Assembly: GCA_905339405.1 (NCBI GenBank)
Contig: CAJPGC010000007.1
Location: forward strand, 27,739-91,738
Direction of reading: 5' to 3'
DNA length: 64,000 nucleotides
Origin: an uncultured bacterium
GTDB taxonomy: Bacteria > Desulfobacterota > GWC2-55-46
Shown: one piece after another, positions 12,097 to 35,723 of the stretch
Layout: every line of letters starts with the position of its first letter
Numbering within the stretch: the first letter of the stretch is position 1
Notes under the pieces: generated by a model
Told to the model about the DNA's origin: nothing
The model's database searches: none
Seen by the model: the letters and a program-made list of their open reading frames with translations, nothing else
Made by a program: the position numbers and the translations under genes

Positions 12097-12123
12097 CGGC
12101 CGTCCGCCGGAGGCTCGGGCTCC

Positions 12124-20055: not shown

Positions 20056-21015
20056 ATGGCGCAGAAAAAATCCAGAAAAAACTTGTATCTCTATGCCCTG
20101 GTTTTCGCGGTATCCGCTGCAGTCGGTCTTTTTCTCGCGAAAACGTCTCATGCCGGGGACCCGGCCGATGGAAAGACTGCATCAGTCGTCAGCAATTGGA
20201 AAGAGGGGGACAGCAAGGGCCTGACAGTCAAGATAGGCAAGCTGAAAGAGGCCAACGGCAGGCTGACGAACGAGGACATAACCTACGACGTCGACATAAA
20301 AGTCATCGGCGAGAGCGAAGACGGCTACACGGTCGAATGGGTCTACAACAACATCACCTACAGCGGAAGCAACCCGTTCGTCAAAAAGCTCTATAAGACG
20401 TCCGAGGGGCTCAAAATAGTATACACGACCGGCAAGGACGGGATGTTCAAGGAGCTTGTCAATTGGAAAGAGGTCCAGGAACATCTTTATAGCGCGCTCG
20501 ACCTGCTGGAAAACGAATTTCCAGACAACCAGGCCATAAAGGGCCTGATAAGCCAGTTCAAGGCGTTGTACTCTTCGAGGGACAGCATCGAGAGCACGCT
20601 CCGCGACATACAGATCTACCATTCGCCTTACGGAGGCGAATACACGCTTGGCGAGTGGACGAGCACCGAGACGACGCTGCCCAATCATCTCGGAGGCTAT
20701 CCTTTTCCCGCCGTCATCAAAACCGGCATGACTGAACTGGACCTCGCGAAGAACAGGTGCAAGATAGTCGCGACTCAGAAAATCGACGAGGAGAAGGCCG
20801 CCGCCGCCGTCAAAGAGTTCCTGCGCACCACTGCGGAGAAAAGCGGTGGACAGCAGCATTTCAACGGGGCCGGACAGTCTGGCGTAAGCATAAACGACGT
20901 TTTCGAGTATGACGTCGAATTGAACGGGGGATGGGTAAACAAGGCGTACTTCAAAAGAGAGACCAGGACCGGCCCGGCAAAAGGCGTCAATACATATGAG
21001 ATAACTCTCAAGTAA
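20056..21015 (+). CDS. Secreted hypothetical protein
   Basis: Strong RBS gaaggaggg and signal peptide (LYALVFAVSAAVGLFLAKTSHA). No recognisable domain. Confidence 0.55.
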   Translation: MAQKKSRKNLYLYALVFAVSAAVGLFLAKTSHAGDPADGKTASVVSNWKEGDSKGLTVKIGKLKEANGRLTNEDITYDVDIKVIGESEDGYTVEWVYNNITYSGSNPFVKKLYKTSEGLKIVYTTGKDGMFKELVNWKEVQEHLYSALDLLENEFPDNQAIKGLISQFKALYSSRDSIESTLRDIQIYHSPYGGEYTLGEWTSTETTLPNHLGGYPFPAVIKTGMTELDLAKNRCKIVATQKIDEEKAAAAVKEFLRTTAEKSGGQQHFNGAGQSGVSINDVFEYDVELNGGWVNKAYFKRETRTGPAKGVNTYEITLK

Positions 21016-21235
21016 AAATGTGAATGGCATGAGATACGCGCCAGGCGGGATGACTTTTCAAGTCATCCCGCCTGGCTTTTTTTCAGCCCGGGCCCGTTAC
21101 GCGCAAACGCTCGCAAAGGCTTTGTTTTTTCGGGTTGTTTGTGGTAAATCTTGGGTAGGGTACTCTGTTTTTTTCTCATAAGTTTTTGTACTTGCCGAGG
21201 CTTTTAAATTTTTAAGAAAGCGGGTCATAAAAAGC

Positions 21236-22315
21236 ATGAAAAAAGTGATTTTTGCGGCAGCGGCGTTGTTGATGTTTTCAGGCTGCTTTGGGGGGCCGAC
21301 TCCACTTATGAAGGCCTCTTTTGAGGGAAATAACGGCGAGGTGAAAAGCCTCCTTGAAAAGGGGGCGGACATCGATGAAAGAGGCACTTTGCCGAACGTT
21401 ACCGGGTACGCGCCTAAATACTGGCTCAAATCCACCGCGCTCATGGCTGCGGCGCATTACGGCCAGGACGCCACGGTCGACCTTCTGCTCTCGCGCGGCG
21501 CTGATATAAACGCTGAAAACTTCCTGTGTCTTTCAGCTGTCCACCTCGCGACCGTAAGCAAGAAGAAAGAGACCGTCAGCCTTCTGGTAAAAAAAGGCGC
21601 GAAATTGGAACCGGCTGACGCGTCCAGCGCGTGGTGCCATATTCACAGCACCCCTCTTCAAGTGGCGGCGTCAGAGGGCGATATTGAAATCGTAAAGCTC
21701 CTTGTCAGAAATGGCGCCGGTGTCGACACTGGAGGCTACTGCGGCTACAGCCCTCTATTGCTTGCCTCGTTGGAGGGGCACTATGAGACGGTTGAATACC
21801 TGCTCAAAAACGGGGCCGATGTGAAACTGAAATCACAAAACAAACTTGGATGCCAGGAGACTACTCCTCTGAAGATAGCCGAGGAAAAAGGGCATACAAA
21901 GGTTGTCAAGCTGCTGAAGGATGCCGCAGCAGGCGCGGTAGCCGTCAATAAGGTGATCGCCGCGCCTCCTGAAGACCCCTTGGAGGCGGCAGCCTTCGAG
22001 GCAGAGGCCAGAAAGTACAGGGAGAGCGCCGTGAAACCGGCTTTCCCGGAAGAGGCAAGGAAGTACAAGGCCCAGGCCGAGTTCGCCTTACAGCAGAAAA
22101 AATTTGAGAACGCGGTCGATTTGTACGGCAGGGCCCTGAAGGCCGCCCCGTGGTGGCCTGACGGCCATTTCAACAGGGCGCTCATACTCGGGGAGCTCTC
22201 GAGGTATGAAGAGGCAATCAGGGAGATGAAGCGCTATCTCCTCCTTGCTCCCGACGCGCCGGACGCCAGGGACGCGCAGGACAGGATATACCAGTGGGAG
22301 AGCGTTGCGGAATAG
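21236..22315 (+). CDS. Ankyrin-repeat / TPR lipoprotein
   Basis: Lipobox (LLMFSGC), at least five ankyrin repeats (G.TALM.AA..G....V.LLL..GADIN), C-terminal TPR-like helices. Confidence 0.8.
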   Translation: MKKVIFAAAALLMFSGCFGGPTPLMKASFEGNNGEVKSLLEKGADIDERGTLPNVTGYAPKYWLKSTALMAAAHYGQDATVDLLLSRGADINAENFLCLSAVHLATVSKKKETVSLLVKKGAKLEPADASSAWCHIHSTPLQVAASEGDIEIVKLLVRNGAGVDTGGYCGYSPLLLASLEGHYETVEYLLKNGADVKLKSQNKLGCQETTPLKIAEEKGHTKVVKLLKDAAAGAVAVNKVIAAPPEDPLEAAAFEAEARKYRESAVKPAFPEEARKYKAQAEFALQQKKFENAVDLYGRALKAAPWWPDGHFNRALILGELSRYEEAIREMKRYLLLAPDAPDARDAQDRIYQWESVAE

Positions 22316-22369
22316 GCTGGCGGGGCCACTGAGCAGGCCTGAACGCAGTAGTTCGGAGTAGAGGACGTC

Positions 22370-23851
22370 ATGCGGAGAATATACATTTTTGGAGCGTTCC
22401 TGTTCTTGACGGCAGCCTTGCCGTCTTTAATACACGCTGAAGACTGTTCCGAGAGCTACGGGGCCAGACTTGCCTATGGCAATAAGAACGCGTGGAAGTC
22501 GTGGTGTTACAAATGCGGCGGGTCATTTGTCGAAAGCGGGCCGCGTTCCGAGTGCAGGCCTGGCCCTGATTGGGGAAAAGGAAGCTCTTCGAGCACCGGC
22601 GGCGACAAGGTTGGCAGCGGTTCTTACCAGTTCACTCCTACCGGAGACCTGCGAATAGACGCGCCCCTTGCGGTGATGTCAGGTTTTTTGAACGGCATGG
22701 AAGAGGCAAGCAAGGAGAGGAGCGCCCGACAGCAGGCGGAGAGAGAGCGGGCGGAGTATGAGGCTGTGATGGCGGCCCAAAAGGCCGCCGAAGAGGCCGA
22801 GAGGCGCAAAGAAGAGAGCTTTGAGCGCCTCTCGGGAGCTGTAAAGGGCGTTGAAAAAAACGGCATATTCCTGAAAAACATGGGCGATACGCAGGTGCTC
22901 AAGCTGAAGACCGGAAATGATTTCTTCAATTCGCCCGGAAATCCGGAAGGCATGGCCGAAACGGAGACTCACAGGAAGCTGGCGTTAAAATTAGGCGATG
23001 AGCCTTCTACGGTCATCGGAGTGCCTGTAAAAGATAATGGAAGCGTGTCTGTCCCCCCGGCACAGGTTGTTAAGGAAGAGAAGCTAAAGGCCGGGGAAGC
23101 GAATCTTCAAGCCGCTGAGACGGACGGCGATAAGGCGCTCATAGAGTCCATGAGCGCCATTGGAAAGCGTCACAATTGGGAACCTGAGGAGCAGGCCCGC
23201 CTTGATAAGGCCTTGAACGAGCTTGATTTCGACGGAGACCCCGACGCCACGCCTGCCGAGATACGGGAGACCTGGCGGAACATGCTCCGGGAGGGCAGGG
23301 GAGAGCTCCTCAAAAACGAGGCCGCGAAAGGACACGGCCCCGGCCTTCAGTGGGCGGGAGCGGGCGAGCAGACAAAATACATGGATTGCACCATCTTCGC
23401 GCTGGCAAACGCCTCAGGAGTGCCTTACGGCGTAGTCGCCGCAAGGGCTGCGGAGCTTATCCGTGAAGCTGACTGGCGTGGCCCAGCTGCACAAAAGAAA
23501 CCTCAAGAGGTGATGGAAAAAACCGGCCTGAACGGCGGTGAGGTCATCATACTTGCCGAATCATTGGGCCAGGCAGAGGTCGTCAAGAGCGCTGATTTCC
23601 AGAATGTCCTGAAAGAAGGGCGGCCGGTGCTCGTGAACGTCGCGCCGCAAAACGGCGGAAGCGGCGGGCACCAGGTAGTCATTACAAAGACTTTCGAGCA
23701 TGAAGGACAGACCTGGTACGAGATGATGGACTCGAACCAGGGCGCGCCTGGGCGTCTGTACCTGAGCGCCGATGAGCTTGACACGATACTCCAGGAGAAC
23801 GGCATAGCTTTCCGCCCGGAACCCGGAAGGAAACCTGCTCTGCTTCGCTGA
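22370..23851 (+). CDS. Secreted protein with Cys-rich N-terminal region, coiled coil and C-terminal papain-like (C39-like) cysteine peptidase fold
   Basis: Signal peptide; N-terminal CxxxxxC...CYKCGG...C; charged coiled coil; C-terminal candidate triad Cys (YMDCTIFALANASG), His (GGHQVVITK), Asp (MMDSNQG). Confidence 0.55.
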   Translation: MRRIYIFGAFLFLTAALPSLIHAEDCSESYGARLAYGNKNAWKSWCYKCGGSFVESGPRSECRPGPDWGKGSSSSTGGDKVGSGSYQFTPTGDLRIDAPLAVMSGFLNGMEEASKERSARQQAERERAEYEAVMAAQKAAEEAERRKEESFERLSGAVKGVEKNGIFLKNMGDTQVLKLKTGNDFFNSPGNPEGMAETETHRKLALKLGDEPSTVIGVPVKDNGSVSVPPAQVVKEEKLKAGEANLQAAETDGDKALIESMSAIGKRHNWEPEEQARLDKALNELDFDGDPDATPAEIRETWRNMLREGRGELLKNEAAKGHGPGLQWAGAGEQTKYMDCTIFALANASGVPYGVVAARAAELIREADWRGPAAQKKPQEVMEKTGLNGGEVIILAESLGQAEVVKSADFQNVLKEGRPVLVNVAPQNGGSGGHQVVITKTFEHEGQTWYEMMDSNQGAPGRLYLSADELDTILQENGIAFRPEPGRKPALLR

Positions 23852-23879
23852 GCTTGCGTAACAGGCCTGAAATATAAAA

Positions 23880-23914
23880 GGGGTACTGCTTGATAAGCAG
23901 TACCCCTTTTTGTT
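23880..23914 (+). terminator. Rho-independent terminator
   Basis: Perfect hairpin ggggtactgcttgataagcagtacccc followed by a T-run. Confidence 0.7.
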
Positions 23915-24040
23915 TAAGGGCCGCAACTGCGCTGGAACGGCCTGCTGGTCCGAGAGCATCCACGGCATTCTTGTCATTGCAAAAACAGGCCGATTTCTGT
24001 TATCTTTTGAGATATCCTTTTTATCTACTTTGACGAAATC

Positions 24041-24973
24041 ATGAAACCATTCCCTTCATCCTTGAGAAGCAGGCTTGGATGGGCAGAACTGCTTGAGCTT
24101 AAAAGGACTGCCGAGCCGCACGTCCATCAGATAGAGCCGACGAACAGCTGCCCGTATTCGTGCGTAATGTGCCCGAGACCAGAACGCATGGAGCGCGAGG
24201 TCGGGTTCATGGAAATGGGCCTCTTCGAGAAAATAATCGACGAGATATCCGGTTTCTCCGAGCCGGTCCGCAAAAAAGAGATAGAGCTTTTTCACTTCGG
24301 CGAATCGCTCCTGCACCCCCGTATACACGAGATGGCCGGATATGCTTCCGGCAAGGGCCTCAACGTGACCCTTTCGGTCAATGCCCCCGAGCTTACCCCT
24401 CAGCTGCTGGACCGGCTCGCCTCAAGCGGCCCGTGCAGGATAATAATCTCCTTCGACGGCTACGACGCTGAAAGCTACAGGAAGATACGCGGGAGCGCGG
24501 CCGATTATGAAAAAGGCACGGCCAACCTCAAATATGCCGCCGGGCTCCTCAAGAAAAAAGGCCTTGCCGGGACAAAAATCTCCCTCAGGGTAATCCGGCT
24601 GAACGCGAACAACCCGCGAATCGACGAAGTCAGGGAGTACTGGGAAGCGCTCGGGCTGCCAGTAGAGGTCCGCGAGTTTTTCCCGTGGACTGAAAAAGAG
24701 CTCGCGTCCCTCGGCATCGTGCAGAAGTACCCGCCATTCATGCCCTGTCCCTTTCCGTGGCAATATCTCGTTGTGCAGTGGGACGGCACTGTTGTGCCGT
24801 GCTGCAGGGACTATAACGGCGTCAACCAGATGGGCAACGTCCGGGGCTCGTCCTTGAAGGAGATATGGAACAGCCCCGTATACGCCGATTTCAGGGCGCA
24901 GCACCGGACAGGGGAATACGGCAGCAACGGACTGTGCAGGGGATGCATGGAAATCTTTTACACAGAGGGATAG
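24041..24973 (+). CDS. Radical SAM / SPASM-domain protein
   Basis: CPYSCVMC (Cx3Cx2C) radical-SAM cluster motif and a C-terminal Cys-rich SPASM-like region (CPFPW...PCC...CRGC). Confidence 0.8.
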   Translation: MKPFPSSLRSRLGWAELLELKRTAEPHVHQIEPTNSCPYSCVMCPRPERMEREVGFMEMGLFEKIIDEISGFSEPVRKKEIELFHFGESLLHPRIHEMAGYASGKGLNVTLSVNAPELTPQLLDRLASSGPCRIIISFDGYDAESYRKIRGSAADYEKGTANLKYAAGLLKKKGLAGTKISLRVIRLNANNPRIDEVREYWEALGLPVEVREFFPWTEKELASLGIVQKYPPFMPCPFPWQYLVVQWDGTVVPCCRDYNGVNQMGNVRGSSLKEIWNSPVYADFRAQHRTGEYGSNGLCRGCMEIFYTEG

Positions 24974-26553
24974 TGGAAGAGCAGGTCTTACATGGTGAAG
25001 GGGGACAAGCGCCTTCCAGGGATACTGTCGCCGCGCTGTTCCAAAGGGCCGTTCACGTCAACGGGGCGGCCCCGCTCGTCTTTTTCGACGACGGCAGTTT
25101 TTTGAGCTACACCGAGGCCGGCTCTCTTGCCTTTGAGATCGCCGGGCGTTTGCAGGCTAAAGGAATCGGCAAGGGAAGCTACGTGGTATCAGCTTCAGCT
25201 GCCTCAGCTGAGGCAGCGCTCGTTTTCTGGGCATCGATGCTCGTCGGCGCGGTCTTTGTGCCGGTTGACGGCAATATGCAGCCGGAGAAGCTCTCGAGAA
25301 TTCTGGAGCTCATAGACCCTGGGATTGTCTTCACGGGCCCGGAATGGGCAGGGAAAAGCGCTCTTGCGGGCTTGAAGCCGGTCATATACACTTCGTCCGC
25401 CACCACGCCTGTTGCAGGCGGCTCTCAACAATTTCAACAGTTTTTCGATGGCGGTGAGGGCGCTTACAGTCCACAGCCGGTCTCGCCCGAAGACGCCGCC
25501 GTCGTCCTTTTCACTTCAGGCACATCAGGAGAGCCAAAAGGCATAGTGCTCTCACAAGGCGCGCTTTCAGGCAGCGGGCGCTTGATGGCTGAGACTTATC
25601 AATGGGGGCCGTCTGACAAAGTCCTTATGACCGGTGATTTCCATACCATGAGCGGGTTGAGAAACCCGTGCGTCGCTGCTCTCTATTCAGGGGCTTCTTT
25701 CATAATCGCGCCACAGGGCGCAAGGGGGAGCGCTCCGGCCTGCTCGGAGCTGATGGAAAGGCTCGGAGTGACCATATTGTGCACGGTCCCAGCCTTTCTA
25801 TCCCAGTTCACGAGGTTCCAGGAGAAGATATCAGGCGGCTTTGCGAGAAGCCTCAGGTTCGTCATGTGCACTGGGACAAACCTTTCCCCGGCGGTCATCG
25901 ATGAATTCGAAGGGCGTTATGGCAAGTCTGTGCTCAACTATTACGGCTTGACGGAGACGGCCGGCCTTTGTGTCGGCGTTCCCCCGGGAATGGAACAGAA
26001 GCTAAAGGGCGCCGTCGGCGTGCCGCTCGGCTGCTCGCTCAAGATAGCCGCGCCTGAAGGCGCCGAGGCGGGCGAGGGAATATCAGGGGAGCTCCTCATA
26101 TCAACAGAGAACATCATGAGCGGCTATTTAAAAGACCCTGAAGCTACTGAAAAGGCTTTTGCAGGCGGCTGGTTCTTGACAAGGGACCTCTGCCGCAGAT
26201 GGCCGGACGGCTCGATAGAGCTTTTAGGACGCGTTGACGACGCTTTCAAGGACCTGAGGGGAGAGCTCGTGCACCCCTCCGAGATAGAGAAGGTCATCGA
26301 AGGGCTGCCAAACGTTCTTGAAGCCGTTGTCTGCGGCTTTGGCGAGCGGGACGGACGTCCTGCGGCGGCCGCCTTTGTAGTCGCAAAAGAAAAAGCGGCG
26401 GACGAGGACATTTTGGCCGGCGAGCTCCGCCGCCAGGTCTTCGCCGCGCTCGGCCCTTACAGGACGCCCGCTCTTATCATTTTCGTGGACTCGCTTCCAA
26501 GGGGGACGAACGGAAAGGTGCTTAGAAGAAAATTGATGGAGACCCTGCCATGA
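24973..26553 (+). CDS. AMP-dependent synthetase/ligase (adenylate-forming enzyme)
   Basis: AMP-binding motif FTSGTSGEPKG plus YGLTET and GEL core motifs. GTG at 24973 overlaps the upstream TAG (TAGTG); the listed ORF start at 24865 is an upstream extension. Confidence 0.75.
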   Translation: MEEQVLHGEGGQAPSRDTVAALFQRAVHVNGAAPLVFFDDGSFLSYTEAGSLAFEIAGRLQAKGIGKGSYVVSASAASAEAALVFWASMLVGAVFVPVDGNMQPEKLSRILELIDPGIVFTGPEWAGKSALAGLKPVIYTSSATTPVAGGSQQFQQFFDGGEGAYSPQPVSPEDAAVVLFTSGTSGEPKGIVLSQGALSGSGRLMAETYQWGPSDKVLMTGDFHTMSGLRNPCVAALYSGASFIIAPQGARGSAPACSELMERLGVTILCTVPAFLSQFTRFQEKISGGFARSLRFVMCTGTNLSPAVIDEFEGRYGKSVLNYYGLTETAGLCVGVPPGMEQKLKGAVGVPLGCSLKIAAPEGAEAGEGISGELLISTENIMSGYLKDPEATEKAFAGGWFLTRDLCRRWPDGSIELLGRVDDAFKDLRGELVHPSEIEKVIEGLPNVLEAVVCGFGERDGRPAAAAFVVAKEKAADEDILAGELRRQVFAALGPYRTPALIIFVDSLPRGTNGKVLRRKLMETLP

Positions 26554-28349
26554 GCAGTATAGTTCAAGTTTTTGAAAACGCTGAAAGAGTGAAGCCGGGC
26601 AAGCCCTTGATGGTGACTGCTTCGGGCGAGCTTACATATGGAGCGCTCATTGAGCGCACTTCTCTCATGGCCGGACTTTTAAAGAAAGACGGCATATCTG
26701 AGGGCGACAGGGCGATAGTGTCGAGCGCGGACGACATCGAGTCAGCCTCGTCTTTCATCGGCCTTATGCGCTGCGGGGCCGTTCCGGTGATGGTAGATGC
26801 GCACCTTCCGGCACCCGAATGGACTGAAGTGGCAAAGGCCGCGAAAGCTAGCTGCGCTTTTGTTGACCAGGCGTTGAGGGAGCGCGCGGAAAAAATAACC
26901 GGCGTGTATGAATTCGGGAGGTCAACTAAGGCAGGCATGCTCGGCAGGCTTCTTAAGAGGGACAGGGCAGGGTACCCGGCGTTCTTCGAGGGGATAGTCC
27001 CGGCAGCTCCGCCCGAGAAAATTGACGAGGGTCTTGACGCGTACATAATGTTCACTTCAGGGACTACTTCGCGGCCCAAGGGCGTCAGGATAAGCCATAA
27101 GGCGCTTTTCGCCCATCTTGGGACTCTTTCAAGGCAGTTCGGCTACTCAGGCGAGGCGCGCATACTCAATGTCCTTCCGCTTAGCCACGCGGACGGCATC
27201 GTCCAGGGGCCTCTTGTTGCCCTGTACAACTTCGCCACCGTATATAGGCCATTGGAGTTCAGCATACAGAGGATTACAGAGCTCCTCGACGCGCTCTACA
27301 GGGAGCGGATAACGCACTTTGTCGCAGTGCCGACCATGCTGTCGCTCATATACAAGCTGTGGCAGGGACACGAGGAGAGTTTTTCGTCGGGCGACCTGAA
27401 GATGGTTGTCTCGACGGCCTCTTATCTGGAAAAGGAGATATGGGAAGGGTTTGAAAAAAAGTTCGGGGTCAGGGTCTCGAACGTCTACGGCCTTACAGAG
27501 ACAGTTGCAGGAGGGCTCTTCAGCGGCCCCTCAGATTCGGGGAGGCGCGTAGGGACCGTCGGCAAGCCTGTAGACTGCGAGGCAAGGGCAGCCCTTGAGG
27601 ACGGTGCTCCCGCGCCGGACGGAGAACCAGGCGAGCTGCTTTTGAAGGGAGAAAATCTCATGACTGGCTACTTCGAGGACAGCGAGGCCACGGCCCAGGC
27701 TCTCGCGGGTAGCTGGCTCCATACCGGCGATATCGCCGTCAGGGACAGCGACGGTTTTTACAGGATAACCGGAAGGAAAAAGAACATCATCGTCACCGGA
27801 GGGCTGAACGTTCAGCCCGAGGAGGTGACAGAGGCATTGAAGGCCCACCCTGATGTGCTGGAAGCGGTGACTTTCGGCGTCGAGGACGATGTCTCCGGAG
27901 AGCTGGTCGCCTCATGCGTGGTCCTATCGTCTGGGTCGGCTGCCGATGATGCCGGACTTGCCGAGTGGTGCAGGGGAAGGATAGCGCACTACAAGGCGCC
28001 ACGGTGCGTACATATTTTCGAAGAGCTTCCCAAAGGGCCTTCTGGCAAGGTGATAATCGCCCAGGCTAAAAAGATGGCGCTGGAAGCGGCCGTAGCGGAG
28101 AGCGCGGCGGGAGAGAGCGTCATTGAAAAAGTGCTCGGCGCCGCGTCGGCTGTTTTCAAGTCGCCGGTCAAGGAGCTTTCCGAGCGTTCGACCACGGCTG
28201 ATGTCGCCGGATGGGATTCGCTCGCCCACCTGCAGTTCGTCGTCGCGCTTGAAGAGGCTTTTGATATAAGGCTCGACCCGTCTGACATAATAAGGATAGA
28301 GTCGATAGGCGAGGCTGAAAGGATAGTGCGTGAGAAGCTCTCGTCCTGA
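26550..28349 (+). CDS. Adenylating enzyme fused to a C-terminal acyl/peptidyl carrier protein domain (DltA-DltC-like fusion)
   Basis: AMP-binding motif FTSGTTSRPKG, YGLTET. C-terminal ~80 aa carry the phosphopantetheine-attachment motif GWDSLAHL. Start ATGA overlaps the upstream stop. Confidence 0.8.
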   Translation: MSSIVQVFENAERVKPGKPLMVTASGELTYGALIERTSLMAGLLKKDGISEGDRAIVSSADDIESASSFIGLMRCGAVPVMVDAHLPAPEWTEVAKAAKASCAFVDQALRERAEKITGVYEFGRSTKAGMLGRLLKRDRAGYPAFFEGIVPAAPPEKIDEGLDAYIMFTSGTTSRPKGVRISHKALFAHLGTLSRQFGYSGEARILNVLPLSHADGIVQGPLVALYNFATVYRPLEFSIQRITELLDALYRERITHFVAVPTMLSLIYKLWQGHEESFSSGDLKMVVSTASYLEKEIWEGFEKKFGVRVSNVYGLTETVAGGLFSGPSDSGRRVGTVGKPVDCEARAALEDGAPAPDGEPGELLLKGENLMTGYFEDSEATAQALAGSWLHTGDIAVRDSDGFYRITGRKKNIIVTGGLNVQPEEVTEALKAHPDVLEAVTFGVEDDVSGELVASCVVLSSGSAADDAGLAEWCRGRIAHYKAPRCVHIFEELPKGPSGKVIIAQAKKMALEAAVAESAAGESVIEKVLGAASAVFKSPVKELSERSTTADVAGWDSLAHLQFVVALEEAFDIRLDPSDIIRIESIGEAERIVREKLSS

Positions 28350-29250
28350 GGCGCGCCCCCGCCGCCACGCCCCTCCTCTTTATTTATGGTTTGCCGTCGC
28401 TGCCATGCTGGCCGTCTTTTTCCTCGCAAGCATTCCTGCCTTTAACCGGTTCAATGCCGTCGACAGGACTTTTTTCGAGTCTTCAGCGCGCAGGCTCGAG
28501 ACTTTTCGTGAGCGTGCCGGAGGCGGCGGGAAAAGCCTCAAGGTGCTTGCCATAGGAAGTTCCCTGATGGACAGGGCCGTTTATTTCGACGAGCAGATGG
28601 AAGCACTGGCAGAGAGCCGCGGCCTTCCCAACCTTGTGTTCGCCCGCATCACCCGTTCCGGCGGCGACATTTCGAATTTCATGCCTCTCTTGAGCCAAAT
28701 GGCACAGGCGGCTCCGGACATCATCCTGGTCGAGTCGGACAGCGTTTTTTATGACCGCCATACGATAAAGAACGTATTCTTGAGGGAGTATATTGTTTTT
28801 TTGCGGGCCTTGCTGATGGCAAACCTCAAGTCCGGGCCCACGCTTCCGGAGCCCCGGGTCTATATTGAAAACGAGTTCGACCTTGCGTTGGACGGCAAGA
28901 CATCCGCGCGCCCCGGTAAGACTTTACTTGATAAGGCATTGCTTGACTGGAACGAGATGGGTTTGACCGGCAGGTACAAGATAGAGCTTTTTTTAAGCGA
29001 GGCAGGTAAAACGGGCGCGAAGGTCGTGTTGATAAATATCCCGAGGAACCCGGAATTTCTGGCGCGTATCCAGCGTGAGGGTGCAAACGGAGAAAAACAG
29101 CGGCTGGAAGATGATTACGGCATAAGGTCGATAATGTTTGATGGAGAGCACAGCCCCGAGCTCTATTCGGACTACGCCCACCTCAATGAAAAAGGGCGCT
29201 CGGTATTTTCTGACTGGCTCATCGAGGAGCTCAAGGGCGGGCGCTTATGA
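28330..29250 (+). CDS. Membrane-anchored SGNH-fold protein, DltD/AlgJ-like
   Basis: N-terminal TM helix; SGNH block I-like (VLAIGSSLMD) and block V DxxH (SDYAHLNEKG). Exact start is uncertain (GTG near 28330-28333). Confidence 0.6.
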   Translation: MRSSRPEARPRRHAPPLYLWFAVAAMLAVFFLASIPAFNRFNAVDRTFFESSARRLETFRERAGGGGKSLKVLAIGSSLMDRAVYFDEQMEALAESRGLPNLVFARITRSGGDISNFMPLLSQMAQAAPDIILVESDSVFYDRHTIKNVFLREYIVFLRALLMANLKSGPTLPEPRVYIENEFDLALDGKTSARPGKTLLDKALLDWNEMGLTGRYKIELFLSEAGKTGAKVVLINIPRNPEFLARIQREGANGEKQRLEDDYGIRSIMFDGEHSPELYSDYAHLNEKGRSVFSDWLIEELKGGRL

Positions 29251-30377
29251 ACCTGGCCTCTGTCCAGATGCTCGGCTGGATAGCGTTGACAATAGCCCTT
29301 TTCTGGGCCGCCCCGCGAAGGTTCCAGCCCTATGTGGCGGCGGCCTCGTGCGCATTGCTGCTGTTGGTTTTCTCGCCTGTCTCTTTCGTCGTGCTCTCTA
29401 TTTTCACAGCTCTCGGGTATGTCCCTTTCAGGTACGGGAGACGGTCAGCCGCCGGGGCGCTCTGCGCTGGCGGGGCCGTGGCAGCGGTCTTCATCTGGTT
29501 CAAGTCAGGGGCCGCCACAGGAGGGGCGCTCGTGCCGCTCGGTTTCGGCTTCTATACGCTCAGGGCGCTCCATTACGGCCTTGACTCGGTCAAGCGCGCG
29601 CTCCCTCCGCACACTTACTGGCAGTTCGTAAGCTATATGTTCTTCCTTCCGACGATTATTGCCGGTCCGATAAACAGGTTTCAGGAATTCCATAGGGAGC
29701 TGGCGCGAAGAAGGTTTGATAAAGATCTTTTCTCGAAAGGGTGCGAGAGGATCCTTTACGGGTTCGTGAAGATAATCGTGCTGGCCAGCTACGAAGTCTC
29801 CCATATCCTGCGCCTGCGCATCGAGGCCATGGAAGGGCAGCACGAGATACTGGCCGCCTACCTCGACTGCATAAGGTACGGGCTCAACCTGTATTTTCAG
29901 TTCTCAGGCTACTCGGACGTGGCAATAGGCTTTTCAATGCTTCTGGGCTTCAGGATAGCCGAAAATTTCAATTACCCGTTCCTTGCCCGGAACATCGGCG
30001 ATTTCTGGAAGAGATGGCATATATCCCTTTCGAACTGGTGCAGGGACTATGTCTACATGATGGCGCTCTCGGTGAGCAGGCGTCCGTGGGCTGCCGTCAT
30101 CGCTTCGATGCTCGTCCTCGGGGTCTGGCATGAGCTTTCGCCAAGGTACCTTGCCTGGGGAGTCTACCACGGAGCGGGGATAGCCGTCTGGCAGGGTTTT
30201 CAGAAGGTAAAAAAGAATATTCCGGCAATGGATTTTGCCGGAGGGAAGTACCTGACGGAAGGGGCCTCCTACCTGCTGACAATGAACTTCGTGATACTCG
30301 GGTTTGCCATAACAAAGGAGCCTGACCTGGCTTCGGGGCTAAGAGTGATCGGTAAAATACTTTTTTTCTGGGTGTAA
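29247..30377 (+). CDS. MBOAT-family membrane O-acyltransferase (DltB/AlgI-like)
   Basis: Polytopic protein with the MBOAT signature FWKRWHISLSNWCRDYVY and a downstream conserved His (WHELS). Start ATGA overlaps the upstream stop. Confidence 0.85.
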   Translation: MNLASVQMLGWIALTIALFWAAPRRFQPYVAAASCALLLLVFSPVSFVVLSIFTALGYVPFRYGRRSAAGALCAGGAVAAVFIWFKSGAATGGALVPLGFGFYTLRALHYGLDSVKRALPPHTYWQFVSYMFFLPTIIAGPINRFQEFHRELARRRFDKDLFSKGCERILYGFVKIIVLASYEVSHILRLRIEAMEGQHEILAAYLDCIRYGLNLYFQFSGYSDVAIGFSMLLGFRIAENFNYPFLARNIGDFWKRWHISLSNWCRDYVYMMALSVSRRPWAAVIASMLVLGVWHELSPRYLAWGVYHGAGIAVWQGFQKVKKNIPAMDFAGGKYLTEGASYLLTMNFVILGFAITKEPDLASGLRVIGKILFFWV

Positions 30378-30658
30378 AGGATGTACGGGTTCTTAAGAGG
30401 GTTCCTGCCAAAGGCCGCTGCCGACGTGCTAGTCGTATTATGGTACCTGCTGCTCATATTCCTTGTCGTCGCTCTTTCCGGGAGCGGCCATGAGGAGTTC
30501 AGGTACCTTAATATATGACAAGGCGCGCCATGACGTCATTTTATACAGATAGCGGAATGTCTCAAATTTGATTTACAGGATGTTCCTGTGGCCTTTTTGG
30601 GACACCAAAAACAAAGGGGTTAGCCGAAGCTAACCCCTTGATTTGTTTAAAAAAGAAT

Positions 30659-30732
30659 TGGCTGGGGGACTAGGATTCGAACCTAGATAAACGAGTTCAG
30701 AGCCCGTTGTCCTGCCGTTAGACGATCCCCCA
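30659..30732 (-). tRNA. tRNA-Gln (anticodon CTG)
   Basis: Reverse complement folds as a cloverleaf: acceptor TGGGGGA/TCCCCCA, T-arm CTAGG-TTCGAAT-CCTAG, anticodon loop CTCTGAA, discriminator G + CCA. Very similar to E. coli tRNA-Gln. Confidence 0.85.
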
Positions 30733-30750
30733 TCCGCGTTGGATAATCTA

Positions 30751-30778
30751 ATATAATTAGATGAAGGGGTCAAGTCAA
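30751..30778 (-). promoter_or_regulatory. Putative sigma-70 promoter for tRNA-Gln
   Basis: On the minus strand, TTGACT -16 nt- TTATAT about 18 nt upstream of the mature tRNA 5' end. Confidence 0.4.
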
Positions 30779-30788
30779 GTAAATTCTG

Positions 30789-30818
30789 TTGACAAGGCCT
30801 CTTGCGTTCTTGTATACT
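30789..30818 (+). promoter_or_regulatory. Putative sigma-70 promoter for the yceD-rpmF-plsX-fab operon
   Basis: TTGACA (30789-30794), 17-18 nt spacer, GTATAC/TATACT, about 30 nt upstream of the ATG at 30845. Confidence 0.4.
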
Positions 30819-30844
30819 TTTAAGTCTTTATATTAAATGAAGAA

Positions 30845-31372
30845 ATGAAAATAAAGTTAGACGAAATACCGGAATCCGGGCTGTCCCTCGACGTAGTGGA
30901 CGAAGGCAGGGCCTTGAACGAGATAGCTGGCGGCAATCTCGACTTCAGCTTTCTCGCCCCCGTGAAGGCCCACCTTGAGATATCGAGGCAGGGCAGGAGC
31001 TTTTTCATATCCGGGGAGATAAAGGCCTCCATACGCCTTAACTGCAGCAGGTGCACCAGGGAGTTCGACTACCCCTACGACGCGCCCTTCTCGGCCTATT
31101 ACGAGAGGACAGGCAAGAACGTGGAGCGGGACAGCGAGCTCAAGCCCGCCGACCTCGAAGTGAACTTCATCGAGGGCGACGAGCTCGACACCGCCGAGCT
31201 TCTCCTGGGGCAGATAGCCCTGGAGCTTCCGATGCAGCCCCTGTGCACGCCCGAGTGCCGTGGCCTTTGCCCTAAATGCGGCGCGGACCTGAACCTCGGA
31301 GAGTGCGGCTGCGGGGGAGAGGCGAAGCCGGAATCGAAGTTCGCCAAGCTCAAGGATTTCAAGATAAAATAA
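30845..31372 (+). CDS. yceD: YceD/DUF177 family protein (23S rRNA accumulation protein)
   Basis: Conserved position upstream of rpmF; C-terminal CxxC...CxxC. Confidence 0.75.
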   Translation: MKIKLDEIPESGLSLDVVDEGRALNEIAGGNLDFSFLAPVKAHLEISRQGRSFFISGEIKASIRLNCSRCTREFDYPYDAPFSAYYERTGKNVERDSELKPADLEVNFIEGDELDTAELLLGQIALELPMQPLCTPECRGLCPKCGADLNLGECGCGGEAKPESKFAKLKDFKIK

Positions 31373-31459
31373 CCGCCCGGAAATTTGTTGTTGACGCCGG
31401 GGCCATTCATATATAAAGATAGAGCCCAGAAACATTAAAAGAAGAGAGGTCTTAAGACA

Positions 31460-31645
31460 ATGCCGAATCCGAAAAAGAGACATTCCAGCTGCAAGAGGGG
31501 CCAGAGAAGGAGCCACGACGCCCTTACCGCCACCGGAGTTTCGACTTGCCCCCAGTGCGGCGAGCCCAAGCGCCCCCATTACGTCTGCCCGAGCTGCGGC
31601 ACCTACAAGGGCAGGACGGTCATCAAGAAGGACGAGGCCATTTAA
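31460..31645 (+). CDS. rpmF: 50S ribosomal protein L32
   Basis: 61 aa; MPNPKKRHS start and CPQCG...CPSCG zinc ribbon. Confidence 0.85.
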
Positions 31646-31747
31646 GTCCGTGTTCCCATTCCGCTCAGTTTACGGCCCTGCCGGGGGTTCAACGCGCCCC
31701 GGCCGGGCCCTTTTTACAGCACCTTTTCCCATTATAGCCGGCCAGAT

Positions 31748-32773
31748 ATGAAAATAGCTGTTGACGCAATGGGCGGAGACTACGCTCCCGCGGTAGTTGT
31801 CGAAGGCGCGCTCAGCGCCGCGAAGGACCTGGACATCCCCATCATCCTCGTCGGCGACAGGGCGCGCATAGAGTACGAGCTCGCCAGGCACAAGGCGGCC
31901 AACCATAACATCTCCATCGTCCACGCCTCCGAGGTGGTGGGCATGGACGAATCACCCACGCAGGCCATCAGAAAGAAGAAAGACTCCTCCCTGAGGGTCT
32001 GCTTCGACCTCGTCAAGAGCGGGGCCGCCGAGGCCGTCGTGAGCGCTGGCAACTCCGGCGCGGCGATGGCTGCCGGGATATTCCTCCTGAAAAAGATTAA
32101 GGGCGTGGAAAGGCCAGCCATAGCCGTCAGCGTGCCCACGATGAAAGACCAGGCGGTCCTCCTGGACGTCGGCGGCAACGTCGACTGCAAGCCTTCGCAC
32201 CTTTTCCAGTTCGCCATAATGGGCGAGGTCTACGCCAAGTACGTCTTGAGGAAAGACCGCCCGAGGGTCGGCCTCCTTTCCAACGGCGAGGAGGAAGGCA
32301 AGGGCAACGACCTCACCAGGGAGACGCACTCGCTCCTCAAGGAATCCTCCATAAACTACGTCGGCTACATAGAGGGCAGGGACATCTACCAGGGCGAGAT
32401 AGACGTTGTCGTCACTGACGGCTTCGTCGGGAACGTCGTCCTTAAGCTCTCGGAAGGGCTTGTCGAGGCCTTCACAACGATGCTCAAAAAAGAGATAATG
32501 GCCAGCGTCCCGGCAAAAATTGGCTATATGCTTTCAAAGGGCGCTTTCAGGAACCTCAAGAAAAAGATAGACTACGCCGAGTACGGCGGCGCGCCGCTTC
32601 TCGGGGTCGAGGGCAACTGCATAATAAGCCACGGCAGGTCAAACGCCAGGGCCATGCGCAACGCCATTTTGCGCGCCCACGAGTACGCCAAGACCAAAGT
32701 CAACGTGCACCTCACGGAAGAGATAGAAAAGAACAAGGACCTTGCGGCTAAAGAAGCCGTGTCAGGGAGTTAG
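31748..32773 (+). CDS. plsX: Phosphate acyltransferase PlsX
   Basis: [15 protein letters not shown]-terminus and conserved position in the fab cluster. Confidence 0.9.
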
Positions 32774-32780
32774 GCCGAAG

Positions 32781-33755
32781 ATGTTGAGGTCAAGGGTATT
32801 GGGGACTGGTTCGTACGTCCCGGAAAAGGTTCTCACCAACCACGAACTCGAAAAGATAGTCGAGACTTCCGACGACTGGATATCAAGCCGCACCGGCATA
32901 AGGGAGCGCAGGGTAGCCGTTGAGGAGTCGACCTCCGACATGGCGACGAGGGCCGCTAAGGCCGCCCTCAAGTCAGCCGGGGTGTCAGCGAAGGACATAG
33001 ACCTCATAGTGGTGGGGACGGTCACCCCTGAGATGGCCTTCCCCTCGACTGCGTGCGCTGTACAGGCCCAGCTCGGCGTCAGGTCCGGGGCCGCGGCTTT
33101 CGACGTGTCGGCCGCCTGCTCAGGCTTTCTTTACGCGCTCGACGTGGCTGACAAGTACCTCAAGGCTGGAGGGGCTAAAAAGGCCCTCGTCATAGGCGTC
33201 GACAGGTTCTCCTCGCTCCTCGACTGGAAAGACAGGTCTACCTGCGTGCTCTTCGGAGACGGCGCGGGCGCGGTCGTGCTTTCGGCTGAAAAGGGCGCAA
33301 GGGGCGTCCTGTCCTGCCACATACACGCCGACGGCAAGCACTGGGACATGCTTTACGCGAAGAGCGGCTTGCAGCCGAGCCCCTTTGACAAGAGGGAGGC
33401 CGAACCTGCCGCCATCAAGATGAACGGCAACGAGACATTCAAGATAGCAGTTAGGACCATGGGGCAGGCCATAAAAGAGGTGCTTGAGGACACGGGCATA
33501 GACCCGAAGGACATAGCCCTCCTGGTGCCGCATCAGGCCAACATGAGGATAATAAACGCCACGAGGGAGCGGCTCGGCCTCCCGGAAGACAGGGTCTTTA
33601 CGAACCTCGACAGGTACGGGAACACCTCGGCGGGCTCCATCCCTCTCGCCCTCGACGAGGTGGCGCGCCAGGGCAGGGTAAAGGACGGCGACATAGTCCT
33701 TTTCGTGGCCTTCGGCGGCGGCCTCACCTGGGCCTCGGCAGCCGTCAAATGGTAA
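32781..33755 (+). CDS. fabH: 3-oxoacyl-ACP synthase III (FabH)
   Basis: ATG at 32781 after the plsX stop. Active-site Cys region AACSGFLYAL; HQAN and NTSAGSIP motifs. The listed ORF start at 32742 overlaps plsX. Confidence 0.9.
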   Translation: MLRSRVLGTGSYVPEKVLTNHELEKIVETSDDWISSRTGIRERRVAVEESTSDMATRAAKAALKSAGVSAKDIDLIVVGTVTPEMAFPSTACAVQAQLGVRSGAAAFDVSAACSGFLYALDVADKYLKAGGAKKALVIGVDRFSSLLDWKDRSTCVLFGDGAGAVVLSAEKGARGVLSCHIHADGKHWDMLYAKSGLQPSPFDKREAEPAAIKMNGNETFKIAVRTMGQAIKEVLEDTGIDPKDIALLVPHQANMRIINATRERLGLPEDRVFTNLDRYGNTSAGSIPLALDEVARQGRVKDGDIVLFVAFGGGLTWASAAVKW

Positions 33756-33783
33756 ACAGAAAAACTGAAGGGGCCTCTTTCAG

Positions 33784-34725
33784 ATGCTGAAAACCGCTTT
33801 TGTATTTCCCGGCCAGGGCTCGCAGTCAATGGGCATGGCCAAAAGCTTCCACGATTCTTTCGATATCGCGAAGGCGGCCTTTGACGAGGCAAGCGCCGTA
33901 ATGGGCCTCGATATGGCGAAACTGTGCTTCGAGGGGCCCGAAGAGCTCCTCAACAGGACAGAGTACACGCAGCCCGCGCTCCTTACGGCTTCAATAGCAA
34001 CTTTGAGGGTATTGTACGAAAAGACCTCTTTCAGGCCCGCTTTTTTCGCTGGCCACAGCCTGGGCGAGTATACGGCACTGGTCGCAGCCGGCAGCCTCGA
34101 TTTCAAGGAGGCTGTACGGCTCGTCCACCTTCGCGGGGTCTTCATGCAGGAGAGCGTCCCGGCGGGAGTGGGCAAGATGTGCGCGATAATCGGCCTCAGC
34201 CTGCCTGACGTGCAGGTCATCTGCGATTCGGCCTCGATAGACGCGGCGCAAGTTGTGCCAGCCAACATAAACAGCCCGGAGCAGATAGTCATCTCCGGAG
34301 CAGCGGCGGCCGTGGACATAGCGGCAAGCATGGCAAAGGACCGCGGCGCCAAGATGGTCGTCCCGCTGCAGGTCAGCGCGCCTTCGCATTCGCCCTTGAT
34401 GGAGAACGCGGCCGAAAGGCTCGGGAAAGAGCTCGACAAGATAACGATAAAAGACCCGGCGACCCCGGTATACACGAACGTGGATGCAGAGCCTCTCACG
34501 TCGAAAGCCAGGATAAAAGAGCTCCTCTGCCTCCAGCTCACGAGTCCGGTCCGCTGGGTGGACATAATAAGGCAGATGAAGGCCGATGGCGCGGGCACGG
34601 TGGTCGAGGTCGGCCCGGGCAAGGTGTTGACAGGCCTGGTCAAGAGGACCGAGAAGGATTTGAACACGCTCAACCTTAAGGAAGCGGCTGACCTGGAAAA
34701 GGTCGTTGCCGCTCTCGGCGCGTAA
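33784..34725 (+). CDS. fabD: Malonyl-CoA:ACP transacylase (FabD)
   Basis: FPGQGSQ and GHSLGEY active-site motifs. Confidence 0.9.
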   Translation: MLKTAFVFPGQGSQSMGMAKSFHDSFDIAKAAFDEASAVMGLDMAKLCFEGPEELLNRTEYTQPALLTASIATLRVLYEKTSFRPAFFAGHSLGEYTALVAAGSLDFKEAVRLVHLRGVFMQESVPAGVGKMCAIIGLSLPDVQVICDSASIDAAQVVPANINSPEQIVISGAAAAVDIAASMAKDRGAKMVVPLQVSAPSHSPLMENAAERLGKELDKITIKDPATPVYTNVDAEPLTSKARIKELLCLQLTSPVRWVDIIRQMKADGAGTVVEVGPGKVLTGLVKRTEKDLNTLNLKEAADLEKVVAALGA

Positions 34726-34878
34726 ATTAAAAAATGCTCTTTTTCCTGATCTCGGCAGGGCAAATAAAAATGCTCACATATTATCTTATATGCTGCGCTT
34801 TTTGTTTCCGTCCTTCCTTGACCTCAGAAAAAAAACTAATTTTTAGAGGCAGCCTAAAAAGATTTTAATAAGGAGGCT

Positions 34879-35625: not shown

Positions 35626-35723
35626 CGTTGTTTGAATTTGACTTCGGGCTCCATTAGGTGTTATACAGTGAAGTCTGCCCGTAATCGAAAATAATCCAAT
35701 TAATTCTACAGGAGGTAGTTGAA

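Follow-up and report, generated by a model that had tools for sequence, protein, structure and literature searches.

Gene content and boundaries of the operon

The 64,000-nucleotide stretch of DNA that we analyzed (the window) contains a compact series of genes on the plus strand. The first is a radical-SAM gene (24041-24973; 310 aa), followed by a gene for a stand-alone ANL adenylating enzyme (ligase 1; 24973-26553; 526 aa), a gene in which a second ligase is fused to a carrier domain (ligase 2; 26550-28349; 599 aa), a gene for an SGNH-fold transferase (ORF4; 28330-29250; 306 aa), and a gene for a short DltB-like MBOAT (29247-30377; 376 aa). All five open reading frames of the original prediction were present, as were the TAGTG, ATGA and ATGA junctions that it described. 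The GTG start codon of ligase 1, which is nested in a longer open reading frame beginning at 24865, overlaps the stop codon of the radical-SAM gene (TAGTG, 24971-24975). The ATGA junctions lie between ligase 1 and ligase 2 (26550-26553) and between the SGNH and MBOAT genes (29247-29250). The ligase 2-carrier gene (ORF3) runs 20 nt into ORF4, whose GTG is at 28330; the TGA of ORF3 is at 28347-28349. The prediction of a five-gene operon was correct for these genes and one short in its count. A sixth gene, encoding a DltX-like microprotein of 45 aa (MYGFLRGFLPKAAADVLVVLWYLLLIFLVVALSGSGHEEFRYLNI), begins 3 nt past the MBOAT gene (30381-30518, plus strand).

Terminator-like hairpins bound the operon on both sides. 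The left hairpin (23880-23915, plus strand) was found by reading the sequence directly. It lies 3' of the upstream gene (22370-23851), and its two stem arms (23880-23890 and 23896-23906; GGGGTACTGCT-TGATA-AGCAGTACCCC) are followed by T5 (TTTTTGTTT). This hairpin was absent from the output of the terminator scan, and we suspect that extension of the stem swallowed the T-run. The right hairpin (30614-30639) is bidirectional and was assigned no strand; its 11-bp stem includes 6 GC pairs, each strand has a T-rich tail, and the hairpin was the strongest terminator-like site in the scan within 23700-30900. It separates the microprotein gene from a downstream tRNA-Gln gene (30659-30732, minus strand), in agreement with the predicted location of the operon between a terminator and a tRNA gene. 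The promoter that had been proposed for the operon (TTGCAA at 23977-23982 and TATCTT at 24001-24006, with an 18-nt spacer) is weak, matching at 8 of 12 positions, and was not reported by the promoter scan. A search of the region around the operon against Rfam gave only the tRNA, and no riboswitch or other RNA element. The neighboring genes include a chemotaxis cluster, an ankyrin/TPR protein and two proteins without a family match, with yceD-rpmF-plsX-fab downstream; we found no functional link between the flanking genes and the operon.

Protein families encoded by the operon

We established the domain and fold identities of the gene products and the conservation of their catalytic residues. 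Both ligases have the core motifs of ANL enzymes (TSGT(S/T)..PKG and YGLTE) and match the Pfam models AMP-binding and AMP-binding_C (2.4e-62 and 2e-11 for ligase 1; 5.9e-62 and 1.2e-14 for ligase 2). Ligase 2 also matches PP-binding (8.6e-06; 26.4 bits, cut-off 20.8), confirming that there are two AMP-ligases and that the second is fused to a carrier. The predicted phosphopantetheine site in the carrier domain is Ser557, within a GWDSL motif, and the motif GWDS[LFMI] is nearly universal among about 65 homologous loci. The operon thus has a carrier with a conserved serine, as in DltC, in the form of a fused domain instead of a separate protein. Ligase 1 (motifs TSGTSGEPKG, YGLTE and GRVDD) lacks a carrier domain. 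At the C-terminal end, where ANL enzymes have a catalytic lysine, the sequence is ...NGKVLRR in ligase 1 and ...SGKV in ligase 2.

DltA is a D-alanine-specific adenylation enzyme of the NRPS type, with an aspartate that binds the alpha-amino group, and neither ligase fits this description. The best solved relatives of ligase 1 are adenylation domains of LgrA and malonyl-CoA synthetase; a serine replaces the aspartate, inside a clade-specific H[TS]MSG[LF]RN motif. The best solved relatives of ligase 2 are oxalyl-, feruloyl- and fatty-acyl-CoA synthetases. The 60 best-matching solved structures for each enzyme included no DltA. Because neither ligase is DltA-like, the DltA-like adenylation and the aminoacylation that had been suggested are not supported. 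The acid loaded by ligase 2 is probably not an alpha-amino acid.

The MBOAT protein is DltB-like, as predicted. It matches Pfam MBOAT (1.8e-24), and among solved structures only those of DltB are related to it in sequence (E 3.4e-34). It aligns over nearly its full length with the DltB equivalog TIGR04091, at 196.5 bits and below the cut-off of 375. Its WHE aligns with WHG of DltB, and its RWH with RWH of DltB. His258 and His295, which align with the RWH and WHG motifs of DltB, are invariant in 41 sequences, as would be needed for the catalytic histidine of an MBOAT relay. The protein ends in ...KILFFWV, with no fused FxYxx tyrosine motif. Among its named relatives, the nearest come from MAGs of Deltaproteobacteria (73%) and Candidatus Methylomirabilis (68%).

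The SGNH protein had been described as a membrane-anchored, DltD/AlgJ-like protein. The anchor (an N-terminal transmembrane helix at approximately residues 13-41) and the predicted SGNH fold were both found; a match to the DltD sequence family was not. DltD is among the fold matches of the predicted model, which is of moderate confidence (pLDDT 62.6), and searches against Pfam and NCBIfam with E values up to 10 gave nothing useful and no DltD match. The putative catalytic residues are Ser78 (in G-S-S-L) and Asp281-x-x-His284; all 54 sequences compared have Gly76, Ser78, Asp281 and His284. A word-index protein search with ORF4 recovered only 7 relatives. The family is larger by exhaustive profile search, with 521 cluster representatives at E ≤ 1e-3.

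The microprotein has a single transmembrane helix and ends in the hexapeptide F-R-Y-L-N-I, which matches the C-terminal tyrosine hexapeptide of an MBOAT-SGNH relay. Two basic residues, Arg6 and Lys11, precede the helix and the tail follows it; from the position of the basic residues alone, the tail would be extracytoplasmic. In 34 diverse homologues, Tyr42 is the only invariant column, Phe40 is conserved in more than 90%, and the motif closes with I, V, L, W or F. The DltX models of Pfam and NCBIfam matched no member of this set, and searches with the microprotein at E values up to 10 yielded nothing of use. In related contigs, independent gene callers likewise annotated a gene for 45 aa at this position. 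Judged from sequence, the architecture matches that of DltX, the single-helix acyl-tyrosine shuttle of Dlt, which is about 45-50 aa long. The acyl-shuttle motif of DltX is FXYXXF, whose tyrosine is used in the Dlt and PatAB mechanism (PMC12148441), and by analogy we propose that Tyr42 is the acyl-shuttle residue.

The radical-SAM enzyme had been predicted to be a SPASM protein. The radical-SAM assignment holds (CX3CX2C in a partial TIM barrel; C37, C41 and C44); assignment to full SPASM is not supported. A full SPASM domain, with two auxiliary clusters, has the seven-cysteine motif CX9-15GX4C ... CX2CX5CX3C ... C. The C-terminal auxiliary-cluster domain here has five invariant cysteines (C236, C254, C255, C299 and C302), not seven, and aligns with the twitch domain of BtrN, although the Pfam SPASM model still matches. 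The predicted domain therefore fits the twitch type better than full SPASM. Searches against curated families reached no cut-off, and in fold comparisons peptide-modifying and small-molecule enzymes matched about equally well. The radical-SAM core begins at about residue 27 of a 310-aa protein, leaving no room for a leader-binding domain.

Distribution of the gene cassette

We surveyed the locus across species-level genomes by searching contigs with the MBOAT alignment, and found that the gene set is conserved. The core, consisting of the ligase-carrier, SGNH, MBOAT and microprotein genes, recurs with unrelated flanks in Bacteroidota, Proteobacteria, Nitrospirota, Planctomycetota and Methylomirabilota, and the hosts belong mostly to diderm phyla. 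Six loci (L001, L002, L007, L008, L009 and L010) have the same gene order with unrelated flanks. Because the order recurs in dozens of unrelated contigs with differing flanks, it is not due to chance. Among the 55 loci with full flanks, the ligase-carrier gene adjoins the MBOAT gene in 42 and the microprotein gene is present in at least 38. Of 92 loci searched with the motif, 63 gave a microprotein, and variant C-termini occurred in others.

The radical-SAM gene leads the operon here, as predicted, and is an optional addition within a cassette family that is much more widespread. It is present in 7 of the 55 loci, and a methyltransferase-like alternative in 18; both are confined to loci with ligase 1. 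Every radical-SAM homologue whose context was examined lies within such a cassette. Among cultured bacteria, the radical-SAM type is carried by Desulfopila sp. IMCC35008 and the methyltransferase-like type by Pedobacter gandavensis, Cytophaga aurantiaca, Niabella hirudinis and Flavisolibacter ginsengisoli. We take carriers of the radical-SAM type to be anaerobes and those with the methyltransferase-like domain to be aerobes. None of the operon proteins attained a curated family cut-off, and a literature search found no description of the gene combination. With the corrections given above, the analysis supports the original interpretation.

A proposed acyl relay and its relation to known systems

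We favor, with some confidence, the interpretation that the six-gene operon encodes a carrier-protein-fed acyl relay through MBOAT, microprotein and SGNH protein, Dlt-like in build and belonging to a separate family. We infer its direction and chemistry from the analogy with these systems, Dlt and PatAB. The first step would be cytoplasmic: ligase 2 would adenylate a carboxylic acid and attach it as a thioester to Ser557 in the carrier domain to which it is fused. An add-on module, formed by ligase 1 and the radical-SAM enzyme, would supply or tailor a second or modified acyl unit. The MBOAT, through His295, would take the acyl group from the carrier thioester and pass it through the membrane to Tyr42 in the FRYLNI tail of the microprotein. 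From the tail, the group would move to Ser78 of the SGNH protein, which is anchored in the membrane and would lie in the periplasm, and this protein would esterify a hydroxyl on an envelope component. This acceptor is a guess, because polymer-synthesis or glycosyltransferase genes were linked to the cassette in none of the loci examined. A broader proposal, that there is a large undescribed diderm family of carrier-fed MBOAT/tyrosine-microprotein/SGNH relays, seems to us about evenly balanced between right and wrong. Such relays would place a non-acetyl, non-D-alanyl, SAM-tailored acyl group on the envelope, with tailoring by the twitch radical-SAM enzyme in presumed anaerobes or by a methyltransferase-fold domain fused to ligase 1 in presumed aerobes.

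The lack of linked polymer-biosynthesis genes would also be expected if the cassette made or exported a small acylated metabolite or lipid (for example, an acylated membrane lipid head group), with the SGNH protein as a releasing hydrolase or an acyltransferase for a small acceptor. The cassette travels as a self-contained unit among unrelated contexts, and its combination of two ligases and a carrier with a radical-SAM enzyme is reminiscent of a small natural-product module. However, Pfam searches found no thioesterase, condensation or ketosynthase domain, and an MBOAT with a tyrosine tail and an anchored SGNH protein is the hallmark of characterized polymer acylation relays (PMC12148441). 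We consider this alternative unlikely; it differs from the proposed relay mainly in the acceptor, because acylation of a lipid by the same relay would likewise modify the envelope. It is very improbable that the 45-aa product is a RiPP-like precursor modified by the radical-SAM/SPASM-type enzyme, with the other genes serving in tailoring or export. The microprotein occurs without the radical-SAM gene in most cassettes (at least 38 versus 7 of 55 loci), it is mostly one transmembrane helix with Tyr42 as the sole invariant residue, the enzyme lacks space for leader binding, and the radical-SAM gene tracks ligase 1 instead of the microprotein; we therefore rejected this explanation. We also rejected, as the most improbable of all, the view that the locus is a Dlt orthologue that adds D-alanine to an envelope component: a few Gram-negative bacteria are reported to have dlt-like loci, the MBOAT has DltB as its nearest relative among curated families and solved structures, and the parts map one-to-one onto DltA/C, DltB, DltD and DltX, but the DltB cut-off was missed, the ligases have no DltA relatives among the 60 best and differ from DltA in substrate site or grouping, Pfam gave no DltD or DltX match, and the extra ligase and radical-SAM enzyme have no Dlt counterpart.

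The presence of a carrier and a microprotein across many phyla points to an uncharacterized envelope modification in Gram-negative-type bacteria. Acylation of the Dlt and PatAB type affects resistance to antimicrobial peptides, autolysin control and host interaction. If the broader proposal is correct, then the split shuttle of the DltX type is not peculiar to Gram-positive bacteria, and Gram-negative envelopes bear a hitherto undescribed ester. The SGNH transferase, the radical-SAM clade and the microprotein, as defined here, are three protein families for which neither Pfam nor NCBIfam has a model, and catalytic residues are predicted from sequence (Tyr42, Ser78, His295 and Ser557). Because there are cultured carriers, the function of the cassette is directly testable.

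The individual enzymes have relatives in other systems. BtrN, the twitch radical-SAM dehydrogenase of butirosin synthesis, to which BlsE and DesII are related, has low overall identity to the radical-SAM protein; these enzymes act in aminoglycoside or nucleoside-sugar pathways, whereas the context of ligases, carrier and MBOAT here is unrelated. Ligase 2, in which an ANL enzyme of acyl-CoA-synthetase type is joined to a carrier domain, resembles systems that combine a fatty-acyl-AMP ligase or acyl-CoA synthetase with a carrier. However, the PKS, NRPS or lipid-A context of those systems was not found here, and the product apparently passes to the MBOAT. The O-acetylation pairs PatA/PatB and AlgI/AlgJ of Gram-negative bacteria are fed by acetyl-CoA, without carrier or ligase, and have the tyrosine motif fused to a longer MBOAT, whereas here it is on a separate microprotein. 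According to a 2025 paper on MBOAT-SGNH acylation, pathways other than Dlt have neither a carrier protein nor a DltX-like microprotein (PMC12148441), whereas the present cassette has both.

The closest comparison is with the Dlt system of Firmicutes (DltX, DltA, DltB, DltC and DltD), in which the microprotein gene comes first in the dlt gene order and which has the same list of parts and the same inferred logic, with an adenylating enzyme that loads a carrier. Both have a short MBOAT without a fused tail, a separate single-helix microprotein of about 45 aa with an F-x-Y-x-x-hydrophobic hexapeptide, and an N-terminally anchored SGNH-fold transferase; the Dlt mechanism is described in PMC12148441. 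The operon differs from dlt in that ligase 2 and the carrier are fused, there is an additional ligase as well as a radical-SAM enzyme, the microprotein gene is last, and the hosts are mostly diderm phyla. We regard it as probably a new form of a known kind of relay, the MBOAT-SGNH acyl relay.

Organization and boundaries of the operon

All five plus-strand ORFs of the original prediction were present in the ORF list of the window: a radical-SAM enzyme (24041-24973), a stand-alone ligase (ligase 1; 24865/24973-26553), a ligase fused to a carrier domain (ligase 2; 26550-28349), an SGNH protein (ORF4; 28330-29250) and an MBOAT (29247-30377). The coupled junctions TAGTG, ATGA and ATGA read as claimed, and ORF3 shares 20 nt with ORF4 (GTG at 28330, TGA at 28347-28349). 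A sixth gene on the same strand, absent from the original prediction, starts 3 nt past the MBOAT stop (30381-30518, 45 codons) and encodes a microprotein, MYGFLRGFLPKAAADVLVVLWYLLLIFLVVALSGSGHEEFRYLNI. Independent gene callers placed a 45-aa gene at the same position in every related contig examined.

The operon lies between a terminator-like hairpin and a tRNA gene, in agreement with the prediction. Its left boundary is a hairpin with a perfect 11-bp stem and a T-run (23880-23915), and its right boundary is a bidirectional hairpin (30614-30639), beyond which there is a minus-strand tRNA-Gln gene (30659-30732). The proposed promoter (TTGCAA at 23977-23982, 18 nt, TATCTT at 24001-24006) fared less well, matching at 8 of 12 positions and being absent from the output of the promoter scan. 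Rfam gave no RNA elements around the operon besides the tRNA. On the upstream side there are a chemotaxis cluster, a gene for an ankyrin/TPR protein and two genes whose products match no family; on the downstream side, tRNA-Gln is followed by yceD-rpmF-plsX-fab.

Two plus-strand ORFs just 5' of the operon (22370-23851, 493 aa; 20056-21015, 319 aa) have hydrophobic, signal-peptide-like N-termini and match no Pfam family; the 319-aa ORF is kept in a close relative, locus L093. Elsewhere in the window, a minus-strand ORF of 705 aa (2900-5017) has an Acyl_transf_3 (AT3) membrane acyltransferase domain (1.3e-35) and a C-terminal alpha/beta-hydrolase or prolyl-oligopeptidase-type domain (Peptidase_S9, 3.7e-14). 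In characterised polymer O-acetyltransferases the partner of AT3 is an SGNH domain, in contrast to the hydrolase-type domain found here. It is possibly another envelope acylation enzyme of this genome, unrelated to the operon.

Protein families and conserved residues

The last of the five predicted proteins is indeed an MBOAT (Pfam, 1.8e-24). None of the operon proteins reached a curated NCBIfam cut-off; against the DltB equivalog TIGR04091 the MBOAT scored 196.5 bits (cut-off 375). DltB supplies the only solved structures among its sequence relatives (E 3.4e-34), and the histidines of its RWH and WH(E/G) motifs line up with those of DltB and are both invariant in 41 homologues. The closest named relatives, at 73% and 68%, come from a Deltaproteobacteria and a Methylomirabilis MAG, respectively. 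The protein is short (376 aa) and its C-terminus (...KILFFWV) has no fused tyrosine motif, in line with a separate DltX-like microprotein.

DltX is a membrane microprotein whose C-terminal FXYXXF motif serves as an "acyl shuttle", the invariant Tyr accepting D-Ala from DltB for transfer to the DltD catalytic Ser (PMC12148441). The product of the sixth gene consists of one TM helix, with basic residues Arg6 and Lys11 before the helix and a tail after it. Across 34 diverse aligned copies, the sole invariant residue was Tyr42, and Phe40 was conserved in >90%. A motif search found an ORF of ~45 aa, ending in F/x-x-Y-x-x-hydrophobic, directly 3' of the MBOAT gene in 63 of 92 loci; several of the loci that it missed have variant microprotein ends, for example ...DFYYLHG and ...EIIYWDKP. 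Judged by sequence, the architecture is that of DltX. No DltX model in Pfam or NCBIfam matched any of the 34 microproteins, so that the likeness lies in design and motif and not in detectable homology.

An exhaustive profile search with the SGNH protein recovered 521 cluster representatives at E ≤ 1e-3, of which 220 reached E ≤ 1e-10. Among 54 sequences, down to ~20% identity, the only invariant columns were Gly76, Ser78, Asp281, His284 and Trp296. Gly76 and Ser78 would correspond to the block I nucleophile (G-S-S-L), and Asp281 and His284 to the block V Asp-x-x-His. Residues 13-41 form a hydrophobic segment preceded by a very basic N-terminus; the conservation of Pro16 and Trp20 speaks for the GTG start. 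The invariant residues and the hydrophobic segment thus support the label "TM-anchored SGNH-fold". The further label "DltD-like" holds for fold and context and fails for sequence family.

The two predicted AMP-ligases, the second with a carrier, were also recovered. Ligase 1 (526 aa) matched AMP-binding (2.4e-62) and AMP-binding_C, and ligase 2 (599 aa) matched AMP-binding (5.9e-62), AMP-binding_C and PP-binding (26.4 bits, Pfam cut-off 20.8). The carrier Ser557 sits in a GWDSL motif that is nearly universal among ~65 homologous loci. Ligase 2 is nearest to oxalyl-, feruloyl- and fatty-acyl-CoA synthetases, and ligase 1 to LgrA adenylation domains and malonyl-CoA synthetase. The aspartate of the F-D-x-S motif in such adenylation domains binds the alpha-amino group. 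In the HMMER alignment ligase 1 has Ser at this position, within a motif (H[TS]MSG[LF]RN) conserved throughout its clade. For each ligase, the 60 solved relatives that ranked best included no DltA structure. Because of the absence of DltA from these relatives, the Ser at the Asp position and the relationship to acyl-CoA synthetases, neither enzyme looks like an activator of D-alanine or of a standard alpha-amino acid. With the substituted Asp in ligase 1 and the grouping of ligase 2 with acyl-CoA synthetases, the aminoacylation reading of the original prediction is not supported.

The first ORF, predicted to be a radical-SAM/SPASM enzyme, matched Radical_SAM (1.1e-13) and SPASM (4.1e-18) in Pfam. 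Its invariant cysteines are C37, C41 and C44 and only five others (236, 254, 255, 299 and 302), which fits a single twitch-type auxiliary cluster and not a seven-Cys SPASM. The radical-SAM assignment stands; a full SPASM domain, with seven auxiliary cysteines instead of five, fits less well, even though the Pfam SPASM model matches. The C-terminal domain matches BtrN (E 2.4e-13). A high-confidence predicted model of the enzyme (pLDDT 94.9) resembled peptide-modifying and small-molecule enzymes to about the same degree. The best 120 of 865 matches to the enzyme were all ≥50% identical to it.

Spread and composition of the cassette

The original prediction called for a gene-neighbourhood comparison, and the set does recur. 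The six-gene order was found with unrelated flanks in L001 and L002 (contigs from JGI and ENA), L007 (a Candidatus Methylomirabilis MAG; MBOAT 68% identical) and L008 (MBOAT 51% identical). The radical-SAM genes of L001 and L002 are annotated short, and the in-frame upstream sequence has a CPYSC(V/I)MC motif.

We scanned 185,579 species genomes with the MBOAT alignment, which gave at least 586 confirmed relatives, and kept the best 80. An HMM was built for each cassette protein and run on all loci, and the features adjoining the MBOAT were tallied for 55 species loci with full flanks. The ligase-carrier gene was beside the MBOAT in 42 of the 55, the microprotein in at least 38 and the radical-SAM gene in 7. 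In 18 there was a ~440-aa domain that combines a Trm112-like zinc ribbon with a methyltransferase-like part, either joined to ligase 1 or as a protein of its own. Neither this domain nor the radical-SAM gene was present without ligase 1, and one locus (L010) has both. The radical-SAM homologues with examined context were all in a cassette, some inverted or downstream. The 13 loci lacking the ligase-carrier gene have the most distant MBOATs and are mostly from Thermoleophilia and Actinomycetes.

In many cassettes the methyltransferase-like domain stands in the place of the radical-SAM gene (L009:3359-4693, L010:3358-4677, L022:3367-4701, L044:10198-12189 and others). It is ~440 aa when fused to ligase 1, and the free-standing protein is ~600-660 aa. 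Its parts are a Trm112-like zinc ribbon, a region resembling a degenerate class-I methyltransferase and perhaps a winged-helix end. A P-H-x-H-L motif is invariant, other His residues, H257 among them, are conserved as well, and the chemistry may be methylation or metal-dependent. The radical-SAM type occurs in Desulfopila, Desulfocapsaceae, Thermodesulfobacteriota, Bacteroidales, Prolixibacteraceae, Propionivibrio and Methylomirabilis, and the methyltransferase-like type in Pedobacter, Cytophaga, Niabella, Flavisolibacter, Dyadobacter, Undibacterium, Thermomonas and Nitrospina. Going by the usual physiology of these taxa, the division may be one between anaerobes and aerobes. Cultured bacteria with the cassette include Desulfopila sp. 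IMCC35008 (NZ_CP050700.1, ~4.145-4.164 Mb) for the radical-SAM type, and Pedobacter gandavensis and Cytophaga aurantiaca DSM 3654 for the methyltransferase-like type.

Two variants were also seen. In L078-L091, from Thermoleophilia and Actinomycetes MAGs, the most distant MBOATs kept (~415-446 aa) have a single ligase upstream; no ligase-carrier fusion, recognisable microprotein or C-terminal tyrosine motif was detected at these loci, which may represent a different subsystem. L092 (GCA_043956585.1, JBINOH010000921.1, ~7130-12689) is a rearranged cassette with a divergently oriented radical-SAM gene, a separate 73-aa carrier, ligases of 390 and 442 aa, a 255-aa SGNH candidate and a 352-aa MBOAT, among many small genes without a family match. 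The separate carrier means that the fusion state varies within the family.

Comparison of window 20056-30518 with L093:8550-16184 (radical-SAM 95% identical) showed that left synteny is kept, the L093 cassette lying directly 3' of the homologue of gene 20056-21015. L093 lacks window 21236-23851, that is, the ankyrin/TPR gene (21236-22315) and the 493-aa gene (22370-23851), and on its right has a 1286-aa TPR protein where the window has tRNA-Gln and yceD. Both cassette edges are recent rearrangement points, and the differences fit a self-contained unit. A yceD-rpmF-plsX-fabH-fabD-fabG-acpP-fabF block lies 3' of the cassette in the window (30845-37300), and a related cassette in L011:1-11434 adjoins plsX-fabD-fabG-acpP-fabF; this adjacency at two loci may be coincidence.

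A proposed acyl relay and its relation to known systems

Since each part of the core (ligase-carrier, MBOAT, microprotein and SGNH protein) has its counterpart in the Dlt system (DltA/C, DltB, DltX and DltD, in that order), we propose the same relay, modelled on the published Dlt and PatAB mechanism (PMC12148441). An acid would be adenylated and held as a thioester on carrier Ser557. The MBOAT (His295) would move the acyl group to microprotein Tyr42 on the outward side of the membrane, from which it would pass to Ser78 of the SGNH protein, and the latter would esterify a hydroxyl on the envelope. Many cassettes do without ligase 1 and its radical-SAM or methyltransferase-like partner, which makes these an optional module; its probable role is to provide or tailor the acyl unit.

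No polymer-synthesis genes were linked to the cassette in any locus examined, the window included, and a small molecule or lipid as acceptor is conceivable, if rather improbable. A RiPP reading is unlikely; with its radical-SAM core starting near residue 27, the enzyme has no room for a leader-peptide-binding domain. It is likewise unlikely that the cassette is an orthologous Dlt system, given that neither ligase looks like DltA and that the cassette misses the DltB cut-off and has no DltD or DltX sequence-family match.

The original prediction described the pathway as undescribed, and our full-text literature searches agree, finding no published description of the gene set, although an earlier mention may exist. 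As an acyl relay the cassette would work like Dlt, and what sets it apart from PatAB/AlgIJ-type pairs is its carrier and its split shuttle. Outside Dlt, MBOAT pathways have been described as having neither a DltX-like microprotein nor a carrier protein (PMC12148441), a generalisation that the cassette contradicts. The relay principle is already known; the family, its ligases and its SAM-dependent accessory are new, and its acyl group and acceptor presumably are as well.
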